Program-made: the position numbers and the translations under genes
Part shown: in pieces, positions 30,658-41,055 of the stretch
Layout: the number at the start of each line of letters is the position of its first letter
Numbering within the stretch: position 1 is the stretch's first letter
Assembly: GCA_041655935.1 (NCBI GenBank)
Contig: JBBAEK010000002.1
Span: forward strand, 5,548 to 69,547
Origin: Eubacteriales bacterium
GTDB lineage: Bacteria > Bacillota > Clostridia > Oscillospirales > CAG-272
Direction: 5' to 3'
DNA: 64,000 nucleotides
Notes under the pieces: model-generated
The model's input: only the letters and a program-made list of their open reading frames with translations
Databases searched by the model: none
Told to the model about the DNA's origin: nothing

Positions 30658-31155
30658 ATGAGAAAAATCAATATAGTGCTTCACTGCCCCGAAATCCCGC
30701 AAAACACCGGCAACATTGCCCGCACCTGCGCCGCCACCGGCGCGGCACTGCACCTCATTCACCCCTTGGGCTTTTCTGTTGACGACCGTCAGTTGAAGCG
30801 GGCAGGGCTGGACTACTGGCACGAGCTGGACATCACCCACCATGAAAGCGAGGCGGCTTTTTTCGAATTTCTGGGGGAGCGGGCGGTGTATTATTTCAGC
30901 ACCAAAGCGCCCCGTTCGTATACCGAGGTCAGCTATCCCGACACAGTTTTCCTCCTGTTCGGCAGAGAGACCCGGGGATTGCCCGAGCCACTGCTGCAAG
31001 CGCACCCCGAGTGGGCGGTTCGGATTCCCATGCTGTCCAACCTTCGTTCGCTCAACCTGTCAAATGCGGCGGCGGTGGCTGTGTATGAAGTGCTCCGGCA
31101 AAGGGGGTTCGCAGGGCTCGAGGCAACGGGACACCCGAGCACTTTTGATTGGTAA
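30658..31155 (+). CDS. trmL: tRNA (cytidine/uridine-34-2'-O)-methyltransferase TrmL (SpoU/TrmH family)
   Basis: INIVLHCPEIPQNTGNIARTCAATG ... LLFGRETRGLP ... IPM...RSLNLSNA motifs. 165 aa. Confidence 0.9.
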   Translation: MRKINIVLHCPEIPQNTGNIARTCAATGAALHLIHPLGFSVDDRQLKRAGLDYWHELDITHHESEAAFFEFLGERAVYYFSTKAPRSYTEVSYPDTVFLLFGRETRGLPEPLLQAHPEWAVRIPMLSNLRSLNLSNAAAVAVYEVLRQRGFAGLEATGHPSTFDW

Positions 31156-31167
31156 AAAGGAGTTTTT

Positions 31168-32994
31168 ATGTGCGGAATCGTCGGTTTCAGCAGCCAGCAA
31201 AGGGAAGGGAAAAAGATTGTCCGTGCCATGACCGACGCCATCCGCCACCGGGGTCCCGACGGGGCGGGCTACTTTTTGGGGGACAGAACAGCGCTGGGCT
31301 TTTGTCAGCTCTCCCACACGCGGGAGAGTGTCTGCGAGCAACCCCTGTATAACGAGGGGCGCACTTTGGTGCTGGTCTGCGACGGGCTGATTTACAACGA
31401 CACCGAGCTGCGCGCGGCACTGATTGGGGCGGGGCACAACTTCCGTACCCGCAACCACGCAGAGGTCATCGTCCACGGCTATGAGGAGTGGGGCGAGGAG
31501 GTGGTGCTGCGCTTGCGGGGCATGTACGCCTTTGTCCTCTGGGACAAGGTGCACCGAGTGTTTTTCGGGGCACGCGACTCATTTGGGATCAAGCCGCTCT
31601 ACTACATCGCACAGGGCGGCTTTTTTGCGTTTGCCTCCGAAATCAAGGGGCTGCTGCGTCACCCCGACTGCCCGCGCGGGCTCAACCACAACGCCCTGCG
31701 CGCCTACCTGTCGCTGGAGTACAGCGGGGGCAACGAGACATTCTTTCGGGGGGTCATGAAGGTGCCGCCGGGGTACAGTTTTATTTACAAAGATGAGGTG
31801 ATGTTCCTGCGCCGCCGCTACCTGCCGCAATTCAGGGAGGGGCAGGCGGCGGGGCTCTATCAGATCGAGTCCGCTTTGCGGGACGCGGTGGCCCACTGTC
31901 GGCACTCCGGCGGCAAGGTGGGCGCTTTTCTGTCGGGCGGGGTGGACTCCAGTCTGGTGACGGCTTTGGCCAACCCCGACATTACCTTTTCAGTAGGGTT
32001 TGCCGAAAACGGTTTTGATGAAAGAGCTGACGCCGCCCGTCTGTCCGAGATTTTCAGCATCGAACACCAGGCCATGACCGTGACGGCGGGCGATTGCTTT
32101 GCGGCACTGCCCGACATCCTGTACCATATGGATGAGCCGCAGGCCAATCCGTCGGTACTGCCGCTGTGGTTCTTGTCTGACCTGGCGGGACGGCAGGTGC
32201 GCACCGTGCTGTCGGGAGAGGGAGCAGACGAGCTGTTTGGCGGGTATGAGACCTATGGAGACAGCACGCTGATGCAGACCTACCGCCGCCTGCCGCAACT
32301 GGTGCGCACGGGGGTGTCGGGGGCGGTACGGAGGCTGCCTTATTTCAAGGGGCGTGATTTTTTGGTGCGGGGCGGCGGCAGGCCGGAACAGCACTTCATC
32401 GGTCAGGCGCATGTGTTCTCCGCGCGGGAGGCGACAGAGCTGCTCACCCCGGCCTTTCGTTCGGGCCCGACCGCACTCCAGATAGCCGCCCGCTACTACA
32501 GCCAGGCGCCGGAGCTGGATGAGCTGACCAAAAAGCAATACCTGGACCTGCAGCTTTGGATGCCGGGGGATGTGCTGCTCAAGGCCGACCGCATGAGCAT
32601 GGCGCACAGCTTAGAGGTGCGGGTGCCCTATCTGGATACCGAGGTGGCACAGGCGGCGATGGCACTGCCCACGTCCATGCGGCTCAGCCCGACCGAGAGC
32701 AAGCCGGCGTTGCGCGCGGTGGCGCGGCGCCTCTTGCCCGCCGAGTATGCCAACCGCCCAAAAAAAGGTTTCCCGGTGCCCATCCGGCTTTGGTTGAGGG
32801 AGGCCCCCTATGCCCAGCTGCTGCGGGAAACTTTCCTGGAAAGCTACACCTCCCAGTTTTTCAACCGCCATGCACTGCTGGCCATGTTGGAGGAGCACCA
32901 AAAAGGCAGGAAGAACTACGGCCGCAAGCTCTGGACTGTGTATGTCTTTTTGGTCTGGTACCGCCTGTACTTCCTTGAATCAAGCCTCCTGTAA
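31168..32994 (+). CDS. asparagine synthase (glutamine-hydrolysing) family amidotransferase
   Basis: MCGIVGF Ntn nucleophile. SGGVDSS PP-loop. 608 aa. Confidence 0.9.
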   Translation: MCGIVGFSSQQREGKKIVRAMTDAIRHRGPDGAGYFLGDRTALGFCQLSHTRESVCEQPLYNEGRTLVLVCDGLIYNDTELRAALIGAGHNFRTRNHAEVIVHGYEEWGEEVVLRLRGMYAFVLWDKVHRVFFGARDSFGIKPLYYIAQGGFFAFASEIKGLLRHPDCPRGLNHNALRAYLSLEYSGGNETFFRGVMKVPPGYSFIYKDEVMFLRRRYLPQFREGQAAGLYQIESALRDAVAHCRHSGGKVGAFLSGGVDSSLVTALANPDITFSVGFAENGFDERADAARLSEIFSIEHQAMTVTAGDCFAALPDILYHMDEPQANPSVLPLWFLSDLAGRQVRTVLSGEGADELFGGYETYGDSTLMQTYRRLPQLVRTGVSGAVRRLPYFKGRDFLVRGGGRPEQHFIGQAHVFSAREATELLTPAFRSGPTALQIAARYYSQAPELDELTKKQYLDLQLWMPGDVLLKADRMSMAHSLEVRVPYLDTEVAQAAMALPTSMRLSPTESKPALRAVARRLLPAEYANRPKKGFPVPIRLWLREAPYAQLLRETFLESYTSQFFNRHALLAMLEEHQKGRKNYGRKLWTVYVFLVWYRLYFLESSLL

Positions 32995-33056
32995 GGAAGG
33001 GCCCACAGGCGGCGCCCTCTCTTTTGCCCCAATGACACGAAGCTGAGGAATGAAAG

Positions 33057-34289
33057 ATGAAAGCACCGTCATATGATATAGTACCCGTCTTGCTGGGGGC
33101 GGATCTGAATGCGTACAGCATGGCGCAGGCCTTTCACCGGGCCTACGGGGTGCGCTCCCATGCCTTTGGCCGCTACCCGCTCGGCGTGACGCAGCACTCG
33201 CGCCTGGTGGTGTTCCACGAAGTCCCCGAGCTGGAAAACCCGGTCATCTGCACACAGGTCCTGCGCGAATTTGCGGCAAGCCAATCAGGCAAAGCATTGT
33301 TTTTGTTCGGCTGCACCGACGAGTATGCTCTGTACCTGATTGACGAGCGGGCAGCGCTGAGTGACCTGTACCACATTCCCTGCCCCTCCCCCGCTGTGGC
33401 GGCGCGGCTGGCAGACAAGGCGGCGTTTTATGACACTTGCCGTGCCTATGGGGTGGAGATTCCCCGCACGGCTCTCTTTTCGGGGGTGCCGGAGGCGGCG
33501 GCAGTGGAGGCGGCGCAGCTCGGCTTTGCCTACCCCGTGGTGCTCAAGCCCTCCTCCAGCGCCGCCTACTGGCGCCACCCCTTTGCGGGGATGCAGAAAC
33601 GGTACTTGCTGCACTCACCGGCGGCGGTACTTGAGACGGCGGCGACGATCTATGGGGCAGGGTATGACCGATACCTCCTGTTGCAGGACTTTATCCCCGG
33701 GGGGGACGCGGACTGTCGGGTGCTGAACACCTATGTGGACAGGGAGGGGCACGCGGTCTTTCTGTGCTATGCGCAGGTGCTGCTGGAGGCACGGACAGCC
33801 AAGGGCAGGGGCAACCCTACCGCGGTGCTCACCGAGTCGCCGGATCCGGTTTGTCACCAACTGGTCGGTATGTTAGAGGCGATGGGATACCGGGGGTTTG
33901 CCAACTTTGATATGAAGTACGATGCGCGGGACGGCAAAATCAAGGTGTTTGAAGTGAACTTGCGGCAGGGACGCTGCCACGGCTTTGTCAATGCCGCGGG
34001 CATCAATGTCGCCCGGGTGGCGGTGCATGACTGCCTGCAAGGCGAGGCGCCCGTGACCCCCGGCCGGACACAGCCGGTTTTTTGGCACGAGGTGCCGCGG
34101 CGCGTGGTCAGACAGCATGTGAGCACGGCGGCAGACCGTCGTCGGGTCAGGGAATTGTGTGCAAAAGGGCGCGCCGTCTCCCCTTTCTTTTATCGGCCGG
34201 ACCTGTCCTTTAACTTGCCGCGCTTGGCATACCTGACCGTCCACACCCGCCGCCAATACCAAAAGTACCGGGGGATGGGAGAGGAATAA
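33057..34289 (+). CDS. ATP-grasp carboxylate-amine ligase (candidate D-aspartate ligase)
   Basis: PVLLGADLNAYSMAQAFHRAYGV N-terminus, YPVVLKPSSS ATP-grasp core, FANFDMKYD...KVFEVNLRQG C-terminal lobe. 410 aa. Confidence 0.75.
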   Translation: MKAPSYDIVPVLLGADLNAYSMAQAFHRAYGVRSHAFGRYPLGVTQHSRLVVFHEVPELENPVICTQVLREFAASQSGKALFLFGCTDEYALYLIDERAALSDLYHIPCPSPAVAARLADKAAFYDTCRAYGVEIPRTALFSGVPEAAAVEAAQLGFAYPVVLKPSSSAAYWRHPFAGMQKRYLLHSPAAVLETAATIYGAGYDRYLLLQDFIPGGDADCRVLNTYVDREGHAVFLCYAQVLLEARTAKGRGNPTAVLTESPDPVCHQLVGMLEAMGYRGFANFDMKYDARDGKIKVFEVNLRQGRCHGFVNAAGINVARVAVHDCLQGEAPVTPGRTQPVFWHEVPRRVVRQHVSTAADRRRVRELCAKGRAVSPFFYRPDLSFNLPRLAYLTVHTRRQYQKYRGMGEE

Positions 34290-34459
34290 CCCGATTTCCC
34301 CCACCCACGAACACACCACAAGGTTTTTGCGGGGGCCATCACGGGTGCAGGTTGCCCCTTGAAAAACAAACTGCCACACAACAGAGCAACCGTGCCGTCC
34401 ATGCCGGGCACAGGGATGTCGGATGAGCCGGAGCTTTTTTGAACCGCAAGGAGGCAAGT

Positions 34460-35179
34460 ATGATCTTAGGCATTATCGGCGGCATGGGGCCGATGGCGAG
34501 CGCCTACTTTTACAAACTGCTCACCGCCCTGACCCATGCCGCCTGTGACAGTGAGCATGTGCGGCTCCTCTTGTCCAGCCGCTGTGATACCCCCGACCGC
34601 AGCGCCTTTCTACAAGGCACCTCGGAGGCGGACCCCACCCCGGTGTTACAGGAGGAAGCGCAGCGGTTGGTAACGGCAGGGGCGGAGCTGTTGGCGATTC
34701 CCTGCCATACTGCCCACTGCTTTTATGACAGGGTGGCGGCGTCCGTGTCGGTGCCGGTGTTACATATGCCCCGGGAAACCGTCCGCAGCCTGGCGCAACA
34801 GGGGGTCGGGAGCATCGGGCTTTTGGCGACGGCGGGACTGTATGCGGGCGGCCTCTACCAACGACTTTGCGACGGGGCGGGGCTGCGTTGCTTGGTGCCC
34901 CCACCCGAACAGCAGGCGGGGCTGCATCAGATGATCTACCGGCAAATCAAGGGCGGCGGCAGGGGAGAGCCTGAGCTGCCGGCGCAAATGGCTGCCTCGC
35001 TGCAACGGCGGGGGGCGGATGTGGTGGTGCTGGGATGCACCGAGTTGTCTGTCCTGTATGACGGGCAGTTGCCGGATGAACGGTGGGTAGACCCGCTCGA
35101 GATATTGGCGGCAGTTGCCATTTCGTTATGCGGCAAAAAAACGGGACCACAAGGGAGCCGCATGCATGTTGCTATCTGA
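34460..35179 (+). CDS. aspartate racemase (Asp/Glu/hydantoin racemase family)
   Basis: ILGIIGGMGPMAS start. Two catalytic Cys contexts, IPCHTAH and LGCTELS. AAGGAGG RBS before ATG 34460. Confidence 0.85.
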   Translation: MILGIIGGMGPMASAYFYKLLTALTHAACDSEHVRLLLSSRCDTPDRSAFLQGTSEADPTPVLQEEAQRLVTAGAELLAIPCHTAHCFYDRVAASVSVPVLHMPRETVRSLAQQGVGSIGLLATAGLYAGGLYQRLCDGAGLRCLVPPPEQQAGLHQMIYRQIKGGGRGEPELPAQMAASLQRRGADVVVLGCTELSVLYDGQLPDERWVDPLEILAAVAISLCGKKTGPQGSRMHVAI

Positions 35180-36644
35180 GTTTTCGGGCATATTCGGCAG
35201 GGAAATACCCCGCGCCCTCCGGGTCGGGGGGCTCTGCCAGGACAGCCGCCGGGCAGGGGCGGAGGACATTTTTTTTTGCGTACGGGGACTGCGCTCGAAC
35301 GGCCATCTCTATGCGGTCGAGGCGTACCAAAGAGGGTGCCGGGTATTTGTGTGCGAGGAGCCACTCTCTTTGCCCGAGGACGCCGTGGTGCTGCAGGTGC
35401 CCGCGGTCAGGGAGACAATGGCGCAGGCGGCACACCTGTTTTACGGGCACCCCTCCCATCGCCTGACCCTTATTGGGGTGACCGGTACCAAGGGCAAGAC
35501 CACCACCGCACAGATGATCGCCCGCCTGCTCCATGCGGCGGGGGTGCCGAGCGGGTATATCGGCACCAGCGGCGCGTGGTTCGGGGAGTGGCACCGGGAT
35601 ACCGCCCACACCACCCCCGAGGCCATTGAGCTCAACCGATACTTGGCGCACATGGCGGCGGCGGGGGCGCAGGTGGCGGTGCTGGAAGTCTCCTCACAGG
35701 CCATCATGACCCACCGGATTTTTGGGTTGCGCATTCCATATGCCGTCTGGACCAACCTTTCCCCCGACCATATCGGGCCGGGGGAGCACCCCGATGATGC
35801 GCATTATAAGCGTACCAAGGCGCGACTGTTTGCCGAGTACGGCTGCACATGCGCCATCTATAACCGGGATGACAGGGAAGTCCTTACCCTACTGGCCGCC
35901 GCTCCGGTCCCCCGAACCCTGTCCTGTTCGGTGGGCGGGCAGGCGGACTGGGTGGCGTCCGGGTTGCGGCCAACCAGGCGCGCGGCGGGGCTCGGCATGG
36001 AATTTACGGCGAGAAACGGTGCGGCTGCCTACCCGGTGAGTCTCCCGCTGCCGGGGGAGATGAATGTCTCCAATGCCCTGTTGGCACTTGCCTGTGCGCA
36101 GGCAGTGCTGGGAGGCACGGAAAGCCGGCCTTTGCCCGTCGGCGCTTTGGCGGAGGTGGCCATTCCGGGCCGCTTTGAGGTTGTGCCGCTTTTTTCGGAC
36201 CGCCTGTTTCTTCTTGACTTTGCCCACAACGGTTACAGTGTCAGCGCGGCACTCTCAGCCCTGCGCGCCTACCGTCCCGCCCGGCTGGTGTGCGTGGTCG
36301 GCGCAGTCGGCGAGCGCTGCTTTGAGCGGCGGGCGGATATTGGTAGGGCGCTCGGCGAGGCGGATGTGGTCATCCTCACGTCAGATAACCCCGGACATGA
36401 AAACCCGCTCGCCATTCTCGGCGATATCTATGCCCATATCCGGCACCCACAAAGGGTTACCATCATCCCCGACCGTGCGGAAGCACTCAGGTATGCCGTG
36501 CAAGTCTCCCTGCCGGGCGACATGGTGCTGGTCGCCGGCAAGGGGCAGGAAAAGTACCAATTGATCGGCAGCGAAAAGCTGTATTTTTCGGAAAAGGAAA
36601 TCCTGCAAAACGCTTTTCAATCAGCCCCCCTCCCCTTGCGCTGA
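35166..36644 (+). CDS. murE: UDP-N-acetylmuramoyl-L-alanyl-D-glutamate--diamino-acid ligase MurE (non-DAP-type motif DNPG)
   Basis: LIGVTGTKGKTTT P-loop and Mur ligase central/C-terminal domains. LTSDNPGHENP sits where DAP-adding enzymes have DNPR. The ATG overlaps the racemase stop. Confidence 0.88.
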   Translation: MLLSEFSGIFGREIPRALRVGGLCQDSRRAGAEDIFFCVRGLRSNGHLYAVEAYQRGCRVFVCEEPLSLPEDAVVLQVPAVRETMAQAAHLFYGHPSHRLTLIGVTGTKGKTTTAQMIARLLHAAGVPSGYIGTSGAWFGEWHRDTAHTTPEAIELNRYLAHMAAAGAQVAVLEVSSQAIMTHRIFGLRIPYAVWTNLSPDHIGPGEHPDDAHYKRTKARLFAEYGCTCAIYNRDDREVLTLLAAAPVPRTLSCSVGGQADWVASGLRPTRRAAGLGMEFTARNGAAAYPVSLPLPGEMNVSNALLALACAQAVLGGTESRPLPVGALAEVAIPGRFEVVPLFSDRLFLLDFAHNGYSVSAALSALRAYRPARLVCVVGAVGERCFERRADIGRALGEADVVILTSDNPGHENPLAILGDIYAHIRHPQRVTIIPDRAEALRYAVQVSLPGDMVLVAGKGQEKYQLIGSEKLYFSEKEILQNAFQSAPLPLR

Positions 36645-36785: not shown

Positions 36786-36814
36786 TTGACAAAACCAACC
36801 CCATCATATATAAT
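36786..36814 (+). promoter_or_regulatory. consensus promoter TTGACA-17-TATAAT, ~120 nt upstream of tRNA-Leu
   Basis: TTGACA 36786-36791, TATAAT 36809-36814. Confidence 0.6.
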
Positions 36815-36939: not shown

Positions 36940-37023
36940 GCGAGAGTGGCGGAACTGGCAGACGCGCACGTTTGAGGGGCGTGTGGTTTATCCGTACGGG
37001 TTCAAGTCCCGTCTCTCGCACCA
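36940..37023 (+). tRNA. tRNA-Leu (anticodon GAG), long variable arm, CCA encoded
   Basis: Acceptor GCGAGAG/CTCTCGC, anticodon loop TTGAGGG, variable arm TGGTTTATCCGTAC, T arm GGG-TTCAAGT-CCC. Confidence 0.92.
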
Positions 37024-37350: not shown

Positions 37351-37427
37351 TGGTGGGCCATCAGGGACTTGAACCCCGGACCAACCGGTTATGAGCCGGT
37401 AGCTCTAACCAACTGAGCTAATGGCCC
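37351..37427 (-). tRNA. tRNA with CAU anticodon, most like tRNA-Ile2 (lysidine type); elongator Met not excluded
   Basis: Revcomp reads GGGCCATTAGCTCAGTTGGTTAGAGCTACCGGCTCATAACCGGTTGGTCCGGGGTTCAAGTCCCTGATGGCCCACCA. Perfect 7-bp acceptor stem. Anticodon stem-loop CCGG-CTCATAA-CCGG resembles Firmicute Ile2. Confidence 0.88.
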
Positions 37428-39615: not shown

Positions 39616-41055
39616 ATGAGCAACAACGAAAAGAAACTGGTGGAGCAAATCACCTCCATGGATGAGGACTTTGCCCGGTGGTACACCGATATTGTCAAAA
39701 AGGCCGATCTGATCGACTATTCCTCGGTCAAGGGCTGCATGATCATCCGTCCCTACGGCTATGCCATTTGGGAGCATATCCAGCGCCTCTTGGACACCCG
39801 TTTCAAGGAAACGGGGCACGAAAACATTTACATGCCCCTGTTCATCCCGGAATCCCTGCTCAACAAGGAAAAGGAGCATGTCGAGGGCTTTGCTCCCGAG
39901 GTGGCATGGGTCACCATGGGCGGCAGCGAGCACCTCACCGAGCGTCTGTGTGTGCGCCCCACCTCCGAGGTGCTGTTTTGCGAACATTACGCCAACATCA
40001 TCCGCTCTTACCGCGACCTGCCCAAGCTGTATAACCAGTGGTGCTCGGTGGTGCGCTGGGAAAAGACCACCCGCCCCTTTTTGCGCAGCCGGGAGTTCCT
40101 CTGGCAGGAGGGGCACACCATGCACGCCACGGCAAAGGAAGCCAAGGCAGAGACACTGCAGATGCTGGATGTCTACGCCGACTTTTTCGAACAGCAGCTC
40201 AGCATCCCCGTGCTGAAAGGGCAAAAAACCGACAAGGAAAAGTTCGCCGGGGCGGTCGCCACCTACACGGTAGAGGCACTCATGCACGACGGCAAGGCCT
40301 TGCAGGGCGGCACCAGCCACTATTTCGGAGACGGCTTTGCCCGGGCCTTTGACATCCGCTACCTGGACAGTGACAACCAGCTCAAGTATTGCCACCAGAC
40401 TTCCTGGGGCGTTTCCACCCGCATCATCGGCGGGATCATCATGACCCACGGCGACGACAGCGGACTGGTACTCCCGCCTGCCGTTGCCCCCATCCAGGTG
40501 GTCATCATCCCCGTGCAGCAGCACAAGGCCGGTGTGCTGGAGGCAGCCGAGGCGCTGCGTGCCCGGCTGGCAGGACGGTACCGGGTTTCGATGGACACCA
40601 CCGACAACTCCCCCGGCTGGAAGTTTGCCGAGTATGAGATGAAGGGTGTGCCCCTCCGGCTGGAGATCGGCCCCCGCGATATAGAGGCAGACCGGTGCGT
40701 GCTGGTGCGCCGCGACAACCGACAGAAGCTCACCGTGCCGCTCGCCGAGCTGGAAGCTGTGGTCTCCGAGCAGTTGGAAGCTTTGCGCGTCGCCCTCTAT
40801 GAGAAGGCAAAGGAAAACCGCCGGGCCCGCACCTACACTGCCCACACCCTGGATGAGGTAAAGAGCATCGCTGCCGAAAAGGCCGGCTACATCAAGGCCA
40901 TGTGGTGCGGCGAGTCGGCGTGTGAGGAAACACTGAAGGCGGCAGCCGACATCTCCTCCCGTTGCATCCCCTTCGGAGAGTCCCCCATCGGGGACAGTTG
41001 CGTCTGCTGCGGCAGCCCCGCCAAGAAACTTGTCTACTGGGGCAAAGCCTACTAA
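39616..41055 (+). CDS. proS: proline--tRNA ligase (archaeal/eukaryote-like short form)
   Basis: [35 protein letters not shown] ... class II motifs ... C-terminal zinc-binding CxxC. 479 aa. Confidence 0.95.

Follow-up and report, generated by a model that had tools for sequence, protein, structure and literature searches.

A candidate D-aspartate side-chain module coupled to an arginine-less MurE lineage in an uncultured Clostridia bacterium and its relatives

This study analyzed a 64,000-nucleotide stretch of DNA (hereafter the window; contig JBBAEK010000002.1, assembly GCA_041655935.1) from an uncultured "Eubacteriales bacterium" with roughly 59% GC. Four consecutive plus-strand open reading frames (ORFs) at window positions 31168-36644 encode an AsnB-type amidotransferase, an ATP-grasp ligase, an aspartate-racemase-family protein, and the Mur ligase MurE. 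We consider it probable, at approximately 70%, that these genes constitute a side-chain module of the RacD/AslA/AsnH type coupled to a dedicated MurE lineage that lacks the arginine used for binding meso-diaminopimelic acid (meso-DAP), and that the module predicts a peptidoglycan of the A4 type. The pathway is not new, and the module is widespread and also occurs in cultured species.

According to this proposal, the four genes would act together, as a single operon-like unit, to determine the peptidoglycan chemotype. At stem position 3, a MurE of a special subfamily would place a diamino acid that has no second carboxylate (L-Lys, possibly L-Orn), and the racemase would convert L-Asp into D-Asp. 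The ATP-grasp ligase would then activate the beta-carboxyl group of D-Asp and join it to the position-3 side-chain amine of the UDP-N-acetylmuramyl (UDP-MurNAc)-pentapeptide, after which the AsnB-type amidotransferase would turn D-Asp's free alpha-carboxyl into an amide, yielding D-iso-Asn. The outcome would be an A4-type wall (Lys/Orn-D-Asp/D-Asn) rather than a directly cross-linked meso-DAP wall. Each substrate and the order of the steps are predicted by analogy with Aslfm of Enterococcus faecium and RacD-AslA-AsnH of Lactococcus lactis.

An earlier note on this DNA had described four consecutive same-strand genes of these families; all four ORFs were recovered where it had placed them, family models and motifs agreed with its descriptions, and the same four genes were obtained when two further assemblies of the organism were gene-called independently. 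It had also stated that the murE ATG overlaps the racemase stop codon. The two genes do overlap by 14 nucleotides (nt), but the ATG itself (35166) lies 9 nt 5' of the stop (TGA, 35177-35179), with a ribosome-binding site (AAGGGAG) just upstream. The comparisons described below bear out its other readings of the proteins, namely an Asl-like ATP-grasp protein, an aspartate-racemase-family protein with both cysteine contexts, and a MurE with the motif DNPG and no DAP-recognizing Arg. The alignment of MurE with Lys- and DAP-adding enzymes that it had proposed revealed an Arg-less clade with signatures of its own. Its claim that a racemase, ligase, and amidase route is linked to MurE is supported by homology and comparative genomics, with the substrates assigned by inference.

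The arrangement recurs widely. When one genome was scanned for each GTDB species, at least 564 ligase relatives were identified, 80 loci of which were kept, and murE was adjacent in 62 of these 80 related loci. This recurrence places the arrangement far beyond chance. The four window proteins showed at most approximately 53% identity to any relative found.

Ligase, racemase, and amidotransferase of the module

In the known route, RacD makes D-Asp, AslA (Aslfm) joins it by the beta-carboxyl to the epsilon-amine of L-Lys, and AsnH then amidates the product; racD and aslA of L. lactis lie in one operon (PMC4155827; PMC13631041; PMC10829024). The L. lactis/E. faecium route has been described (PMC4155827), and the RacD-AslA-AsnH route has been drawn for Latilactobacillus curvatus (PMC13631041). 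This pathway of L. lactis, E. faecium, and lactobacilli, which builds a D-Asp/D-iso-Asn cross-bridge on L-Lys (EC 6.3.1.12), uses the same three enzyme families as the window module, and lactobacilli share its racemase-ligase and asnB-ligase adjacencies. The window genes differ from that pathway in that the identity is only approximately 30%, the host is an uncultured member of the Eubacteriales with roughly 59% GC, and the genes lie in one same-strand block with murE, the start of which overlaps the racemase gene.

For the 410-amino-acid (aa) ligase, all Pfam and NCBIfam matches were below threshold (PF15632 and carbamoyl-phosphate-synthase-like models), and no solved structure was found for the family. 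Its AlphaFold (AF2) model, with a predicted local distance difference test score (pLDDT) of 90.5, exhibited the classical three-domain ATP-grasp fold; the top Foldseek matches of the model were RizA, biotin carboxylase, PurK, and BL00235 (probability 1.0). The catalytic-type residues K164, Q210, E299, N301, and R303 were invariant in the family alignment.

Comparison with the Lactobacillales proteins was more specific. BLASTP aligned the ligase with a "D-aspartate ligase" of Pediococcus pentosaceus (P0192) at 31% identity over 415 aa (E 2e-71), and an hhalign comparison of the Clostridia ligase profile with the Lactobacillales family profile returned a full-length match over 407 columns (probability 100, E 3e-110). 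We also employed tblastn against a plasmid collection, which includes mislabelled chromosome pieces, and obtained full-length matches with approximately 30% identity (E ~1e-57) in three Lactobacillaceae. The gene order was aspS, amino-acid racemase, and ligase in L. curvatus and asnB and ligase in Lactobacillus crispatus, and the ligase of Limosilactobacillus fermentum had neither racemase nor asnB as a neighbour. Apart from a Subdoligranulum variabile homologue and a frameshifted Bacillus mycoides copy, the remaining ATP-grasp proteins of the collection reached only approximately 1e-8, approximately 50 orders of magnitude worse. Several members of the family of the L. curvatus protein, such as that of P. 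pentosaceus, are labelled "D-aspartate ligase" by JGI/UniRef. These results support placing the window ligase and the Lactobacillales AslA/"D-aspartate ligase" proteins in one full-length family. By analogy, it would be a candidate for attaching D-Asp to the epsilon-amine of UDP-MurNAc-pentapeptide.

When 1.84 billion representative proteins were searched with a profile, 547 clusters were retrieved at E <= 1e-30. Two natural fusions of an ATP-grasp domain with an Asp/Glu racemase (P0377 and P0407) were observed among the representatives. The more distant representatives P0438 and P0484 are fusions of a DegT aminotransferase with an ATP-grasp domain, one of them with an additional FemAB domain at the C-terminus.

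The racemase starts at ATG 34460 (239 aa), not at TTG 34439, and scored 173 bits on TIGR00035, a broad "amino acid racemase" subfamily model, with a Pfam Asp_Glu_race domain. Its best solved relative was the aspartate racemase of Pyrococcus horikoshii (1JFL; E 2e-40, 142 bits). Both catalytic Cys contexts (IPCHTAH and LGCTELS) aligned with 1JFL (IPCHTAH with MPCNTAH and GCTE with GCTE), and the Arg of PDR and the Lys of IKGG aligned with R48 and K164 of the P. horikoshii enzyme, which we take to be functional residues. Glutamate-racemase models scored only approximately 45-52 bits on the related racemases tested, and the racemase adjoins the ligase in 69 of 81 loci when the window is counted. 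The protein appears, by sequence comparison, to be closest to characterized aspartate racemases and is a candidate supplier of D-Asp.

Identity as a cysteate racemase was considered and rejected. The CuyB equivalog model NF052483 gave the window racemase 206 bits against a cut-off of 190; however, the model is non-specific, with similar scores of 206-220 bits on the ligase-linked racemases tested (those of the window and of loci L059, L045, L086, and L081) and 185 bits on the RacD-like protein of L. curvatus.

The AsnB-type protein begins with MCGIVGF, which provides the Cys2 of a class-II glutaminase, and carries an SGGVDSS PP-loop; it scored 444 bits on TIGR01536 and contains the Pfam domains GATase_7 and Asn_synthase. 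Its gene lies directly 5' of the ligase gene in 46 of the 80 related loci and 3' of the ligase-racemase pair in 11 more, so that asnB adjoins the ligase in 58 of 81 loci with the window included. In the plasmid collection, the best match was asnB from the ligase module of S. variabile (48%), followed by Planococcus and Sporosarcina asnB (44-46%), the murE-linked asnB of Collinsella (44%), L. curvatus asnB (40.5%), the Asl-linked asnB of L. crispatus (38.6%), and ordinary Bacillus AsnB (approximately 37%). The proposed role of AsnB as a candidate D-Asp amidase is inferred mainly from synteny. The second-best match to the window asnB (45.5%) is carried by a Planococcus lenghuensis plasmid (L093/NZ_CP019641.1). 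The same plasmid has a MurE-like gene in which DHPG replaces DNPR, to which this asnB is not adjacent, and a second MurE-like match elsewhere.

MurE and the amino acid at stem position 3

The window MurE scored 344.6 bits on the MurE subfamily model TIGR01085 (cut-off 257.3) over its full length and contains the Pfam domains Mur_ligase, Mur_ligase_M, and Mur_ligase_C and the P-loop GTKGKTT. No DAP- or Lys-specific equivalog model reached its cut-off on this protein: the best DAP equivalog, NF001126, gave 349.7 bits, below its cut-off of 373, and the Lys-ligase model NF010628 gave 277.7 bits against a cut-off of 536. The specificity motif reads LTSDNPGHE, with DNPG at the position where DAP-adding enzymes have DNPR.

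This departure is shared by the MurEs linked to the module. Among the 62 that were readable, the window included, the motif was DNPD in 49, DNPG in 5, DNPA in 5, DNPN in 2, and DNQN in 1; the DAP-binding Arg was present in none. The linked MurEs of Intestinibacter bartlettii and Tissierella creatinophila also carry DNPD. The motif was DNPR in the MurEs of the division and cell wall (DCW) cluster of S. variabile and Monoglobus and in those of Priestia and Escherichia coli, and DNPA in Staphylococcus aureus. The linked MurEs exhibited further signatures: DYAHNGxS replaces the DYAHTPD of the DAP-type and S. aureus enzymes, and VGxR...RR replaces the GGDRD..KRP of the DAP-type enzymes. In a neighbour-joining tree, they formed one clade (the window with 60 others) apart from the Firmicute DNPR MurEs, the S. 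aureus Lys-MurE, and the E. coli enzyme. Nearest to this clade as an outgroup was the MurE linked to asnB in Collinsella aerofaciens (EDPA, AHNQLS).

The Arg of DNPR binds the distal carboxylate of DAP (Ruane et al., PMC3829189), and the selection of Lys by S. aureus MurE depends on an acidic pocket (PMC3829189). In most linked MurEs the Arg is replaced by Asp; this residue would accommodate a cationic chain and repel the carboxylate of DAP, which points to a cationic side chain free of a carboxylate. The loss of the Arg is therefore suggestive of Lys or Orn addition, two possibilities that the motif does not separate. The L-lysine-adding MurE of S. aureus (PDB 4C12, DNPA) likewise has the DAP-binding Arg replaced, and in both it and the window enzyme this replacement would leave the pocket with nothing to pair with the DAP carboxylate. 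The two enzymes nevertheless share only 28% identity and occupy separate branches of the tree, and the linked clade is distinguished by the signatures DYAHNGxS and RR and mostly has DNPD. The window MurE may thus act like a Lys/Orn ligase without belonging to the S. aureus-type lineage.

A related coupling was observed in the actinomycetotal C. aerofaciens (L092, NZ_OY725717.1), which we take to have an Orn-D-Asp chemotype. In this genome, asnB lies directly 5' of an Arg-less MurE gene (EDPA, AHN signature) and murI two genes 3'; unlike in the window, neither ligase nor racemase is adjacent. The pair points to a similar coupling of amidotransferase and MurE in Coriobacteriia.

Distribution and alternative readings

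The 80 loci comprised 33 with the order asnB-ligase-racemase-murE, 18 with ligase-racemase-murE, 11 with asnB-ligase-murE, 11 with ligase-racemase-asnB (Ruthenibacterium, Owariibacterium, and relatives), and 2 with asnB-ligase-racemase; the other 5 were cut by contig ends. The earlier note had drawn attention to the linkage in GC-rich Clostridia, where it is indeed present, but it is not peculiar to them, occurring also in cultured low-GC Peptostreptococcaceae and in Tissierella. Among cultured carriers, Peptostreptococcus canis (L059) and I. bartlettii have ligase-racemase-murE, and T. creatinophila has ligase-murE-ApbE-racemase; close ligase relatives also occur in Romboutsia, Terrisporobacter, and Faecalimicrobium. 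Penicillin-binding proteins, Fem proteins, and L,D-transpeptidases were sought as further conserved neighbours around the module and none was found, the flanks consisting of varied housekeeping genes. Apparent large clusters of conserved neighbours were rejected as antisense shadow ORFs. A literature search for published chemotypes of Peptostreptococcus, Ruthenibacterium, Owariibacterium, Romboutsia, and Tissierella gave no usable result; Peptostreptococcus presumably has a Lys-D-Asp chemotype, which could not be confirmed in the literature.

The conjugative plasmid pl546 of B. mycoides (L086, CP067054.1, ~22.1-25.9 kb) carries a frameshifted ATP-grasp gene, an intact racemase gene, and a frameshifted asnB in that order. 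This copy looks like a decaying, horizontally carried module.

Several observations weigh against the reading of a RacD/AslA/AsnH-type module coupled to a Lys- or Orn-adding MurE. The tie of the ligase to Aslfm and L. lactis AslA passes through annotated Lactobacillaceae orthologues at approximately 30% identity, and the distant DegT and FemAB fusions indicate that the wider ligase family is not mono-functional. The AsnB similarity slides from 48% to 37% with no gap that marks "AsnH-like" proteins off from ordinary AsnB. Solved enzymes and models of the DAP type gave the window MurE slightly higher scores than those of the Lys type. The P. canis linked MurE speaks for the proposed reading instead, its best match among solved structures being the S. 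aureus Lys-MurE; because these signals conflict, overall similarity was dropped as a guide to DAP or Lys addition and the motifs and tree were used. The A409R substitution in S. aureus MurE gains no DAP activity, so that the fourth motif residue is not sufficient (PMC3829189). S. variabile TSDC17.2-1.1 has ligase-racemase-asnB (L084, OY725879.1) without a linked murE, and its deposited pieces contain a single detectable MurE, which is of the DNPR type in a DCW context and is followed by murF (L085, OY725839.1). The ligase alone is accordingly not proof of a Lys stem, and coexistence with a DAP-type MurE is possible. The S. variabile arrangement, together with those of Ruthenibacterium and Owariibacterium, suggests that D-Asp/Asn may decorate meso-DAP stems in these organisms or that the ligase has another role. 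No muropeptide or biochemical data for any carrier were found in the literature.

One alternative, which we regard as doubtful although it deserves real weight, is that the linked MurE is a second paralogue, with a DNPR (meso-DAP) MurE also present in the DCW cluster and two walls being made, or that the module is a horizontally acquired cassette that switches the chemotype. The separation of the linked MurEs from the Firmicute DNPR reference sequences in the tree is consistent with this alternative, as are the occurrence of SpoVA genes near the module in 12 loci and the position of the window murE, which is outside a DCW context, is followed by tRNA genes, and is the only Mur ligase found within the 64-kb window. 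In Lysinibacillus sphaericus the vegetative wall is of the Lys-D-Asp type and the spore cortex contains DAP, so that a two-MurE arrangement would have a precedent. The alternative would also agree with the variation of the module flanks by lineage, with the decayed ligase-racemase-asnB copy on the B. mycoides plasmid, and with a GC content of 62-64% in the cluster compared with approximately 58-60% in its surroundings. However, no second MurE occurs within 7 kb on either side in any of the 80 loci, and many Lys-type Firmicutes have a single murE that lies outside the DCW cluster. That the ligase adds another D-amino acid (for example, D-Glu) or uses another acceptor (for example, the epsilon-amine of meso-DAP), the proposed chemotype then being wrong in detail, we consider improbable. 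The ligase-racemase-asnB loci of S. variabile, Ruthenibacterium, and Owariibacterium without a linked MurE, the DNPR MurE of S. variabile, the breadth of TIGR00035, the above-cut-off score of the cysteate-racemase model, and the approximately 30% identity to the AslA family all leave room for such a role. By contrast, the best solved relatives of the racemase are aspartate racemases, which outscore the glutamate-racemase models on the related proteins; the CuyB model, scoring equally high on the L. curvatus RacD-like protein, does not discriminate; and the window ligase is coupled to an Arg-less MurE.

The role of AsnB allows another reading, namely that it is an ordinary asparagine synthetase or amidates a different wall carboxyl group, as AsnB1 and LtsA do for meso-DAP; we consider this rather unlikely. 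In Lactobacillus plantarum, asnB1 and murE are co-localized and AsnB1 amidates meso-DAP (PMC4155827), which weighs against the proposed D-Asp amidation; here, too, an AsnB-type amidotransferase is linked to murE. The lack of a clear orthology gap in AsnB similarity fits this alternative, as do the 18 ligase-racemase-murE loci without an adjacent asnB, although in 3 of the 18 the sequence ends shortly before the ligase gene on its 5' side, where an upstream asnB is possible. The L. plantarum MurE, however, adds meso-DAP, whereas the window MurE lacks the DAP Arg and its asnB lies beside a D-Asp-ligase-like gene and a racemase gene. Amidation of the L. plantarum type fits poorly with an Arg-less MurE, which implies that no DAP carboxyl group is available; furthermore, asnB is kept with ligase-racemase in 11 loci without a linked murE and adjoins the Asl-like gene in L. 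crispatus. A product other than peptidoglycan, such as a small peptide or secondary metabolite made by Mur-ligase-like and ATP-grasp enzymes, appears highly improbable. Such enzymes are known from peptide pathways, that of cyanophycin among them, the window MurE has weak cyanophycin-synthetase matches, and the distant ligase relatives include the DegT and FemAB fusions; yet MurE matches its subfamily model above the cut-off over its full length (345 bits), no conserved transporter, nonribosomal peptide synthetase, or tailoring genes lie nearby, and the module occurs in at least 564 species, as a housekeeping trait would.

A broader conjecture, which we consider speculative and unlikely as a whole, is that the ligase, racemase, Arg-less MurE, and, in part, asnB form a portable "wall-chemotype cassette" that has a MurE lineage to itself and has spread among Oscillospirales, Peptostreptococcales, and Tissierellales. 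Carriers that keep a DCW DNPR MurE would then be able to make two stem peptides, for example one for the vegetative wall and one for the spore cortex, or according to condition, and a ligase without MurE (Subdoligranulum, Ruthenibacterium) may decorate meso-DAP with D-Asp/D-Asn, a rare A4-gamma-like chemistry.

Locus, flanking features, and significance

The features of the locus are listed in Table 1. Upstream of the module lie a divergent secA and the gene for a SpoU-type methyltransferase, which stops 12 nt 5' of asnB on the same strand and may be co-transcribed with it; no conserved association of this methyltransferase with the module was found in the other loci. Within the otherwise tight block, the ligase-racemase spacer is unusually long and closes with a T-run (GGAGCTTTTTTGAA) directly 5' of the racemase ribosome-binding site. 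Riboswitches and T-boxes were sought with Rfam in and around the cluster, including this spacer, and only the two tRNAs were returned; the promoter and terminator scan was uninformative for operon structure.

Downstream of the module, tRNA-Leu is followed by tRNA-Met, which lies on the opposite strand, and by a beta-lactamase-family gene that converges on the cluster. A perfect promoter precedes tRNA-Leu, and the tRNA-Met gene is followed by a terminator. The adjacency of the beta-lactamase-family gene to the module is not conserved elsewhere. A further minus-strand ORF is the shadow of the prolyl-tRNA synthetase gene according to the gene calls of one sister assembly.

Table 1. Positions of the module genes and flanking features in the window
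Feature	Position	Strand	Remark
SpoU-family RNA methyltransferase	30658-31155	+	
asnB-type glutamine-dependent amidotransferase, 608 aa	31168..32994	+	candidate AsnH-like D-Asp alpha-carboxyl amidase
ATP-grasp carboxylate-amine ligase, 410 aa	33057..34289	+	candidate D-aspartate ligase (Asl/AslA-like)
Ligase-racemase spacer	34290-34459		170 nt
Two-cysteine racemase independent of pyridoxal phosphate (PLP), aspartate-racemase family, 239 aa	34460..35179	+	candidate RacD, D-Asp supplier
murE, 492 aa	35166..36644	+	predicted non-DAP diamino acid (L-Lys or L-Orn) addition
DNPG codons, MurE residues 407-410	36384..36395	+	site of DNPR in DAP-adding enzymes
Promoter of tRNA-Leu	36786-36814		TTGACA-17-TATAAT
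tRNA-Leu(GAG)	36940-37023		
Terminator after tRNA-Met	37352-37319	-	15-bp stem
tRNA-Met(CAT)	37351-37427	-	
Beta-lactamase/serine-hydrolase family protein, 641 aa	37514-39439	-	PF00144
Shadow ORF, 508 aa	39583-41109	-	no Pfam match
Prolyl-tRNA synthetase	39616-41055	+	

These findings have consequences for annotation. Peptidoglycan aspartate racemases may be automatically labelled as cysteate racemases, and the ligase has no specific model of its own. The signatures of the linked MurE clade add to DNPR as sequence cues to the specificity at position 3.

Few gut Clostridia have a known peptidoglycan chemotype; in the table of a 2024 review, the chemotypes of Ruminococcaceae, Peptostreptococcaceae, and most Oscillospiraceae are blank (PMC11382707). 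As a simple marker at the genome level, the module, which occurs in at least 564 species-level genomes, would predict which gut Clostridia build Lys/Orn-D-Asp(Asn) rather than meso-DAP walls. This difference in wall type bears on the output of NOD1 versus NOD2 ligands, on sensitivity to lysozyme and cationic peptides and the specificity of endolysins, and on beta-lactam and L,D-transpeptidase biology.

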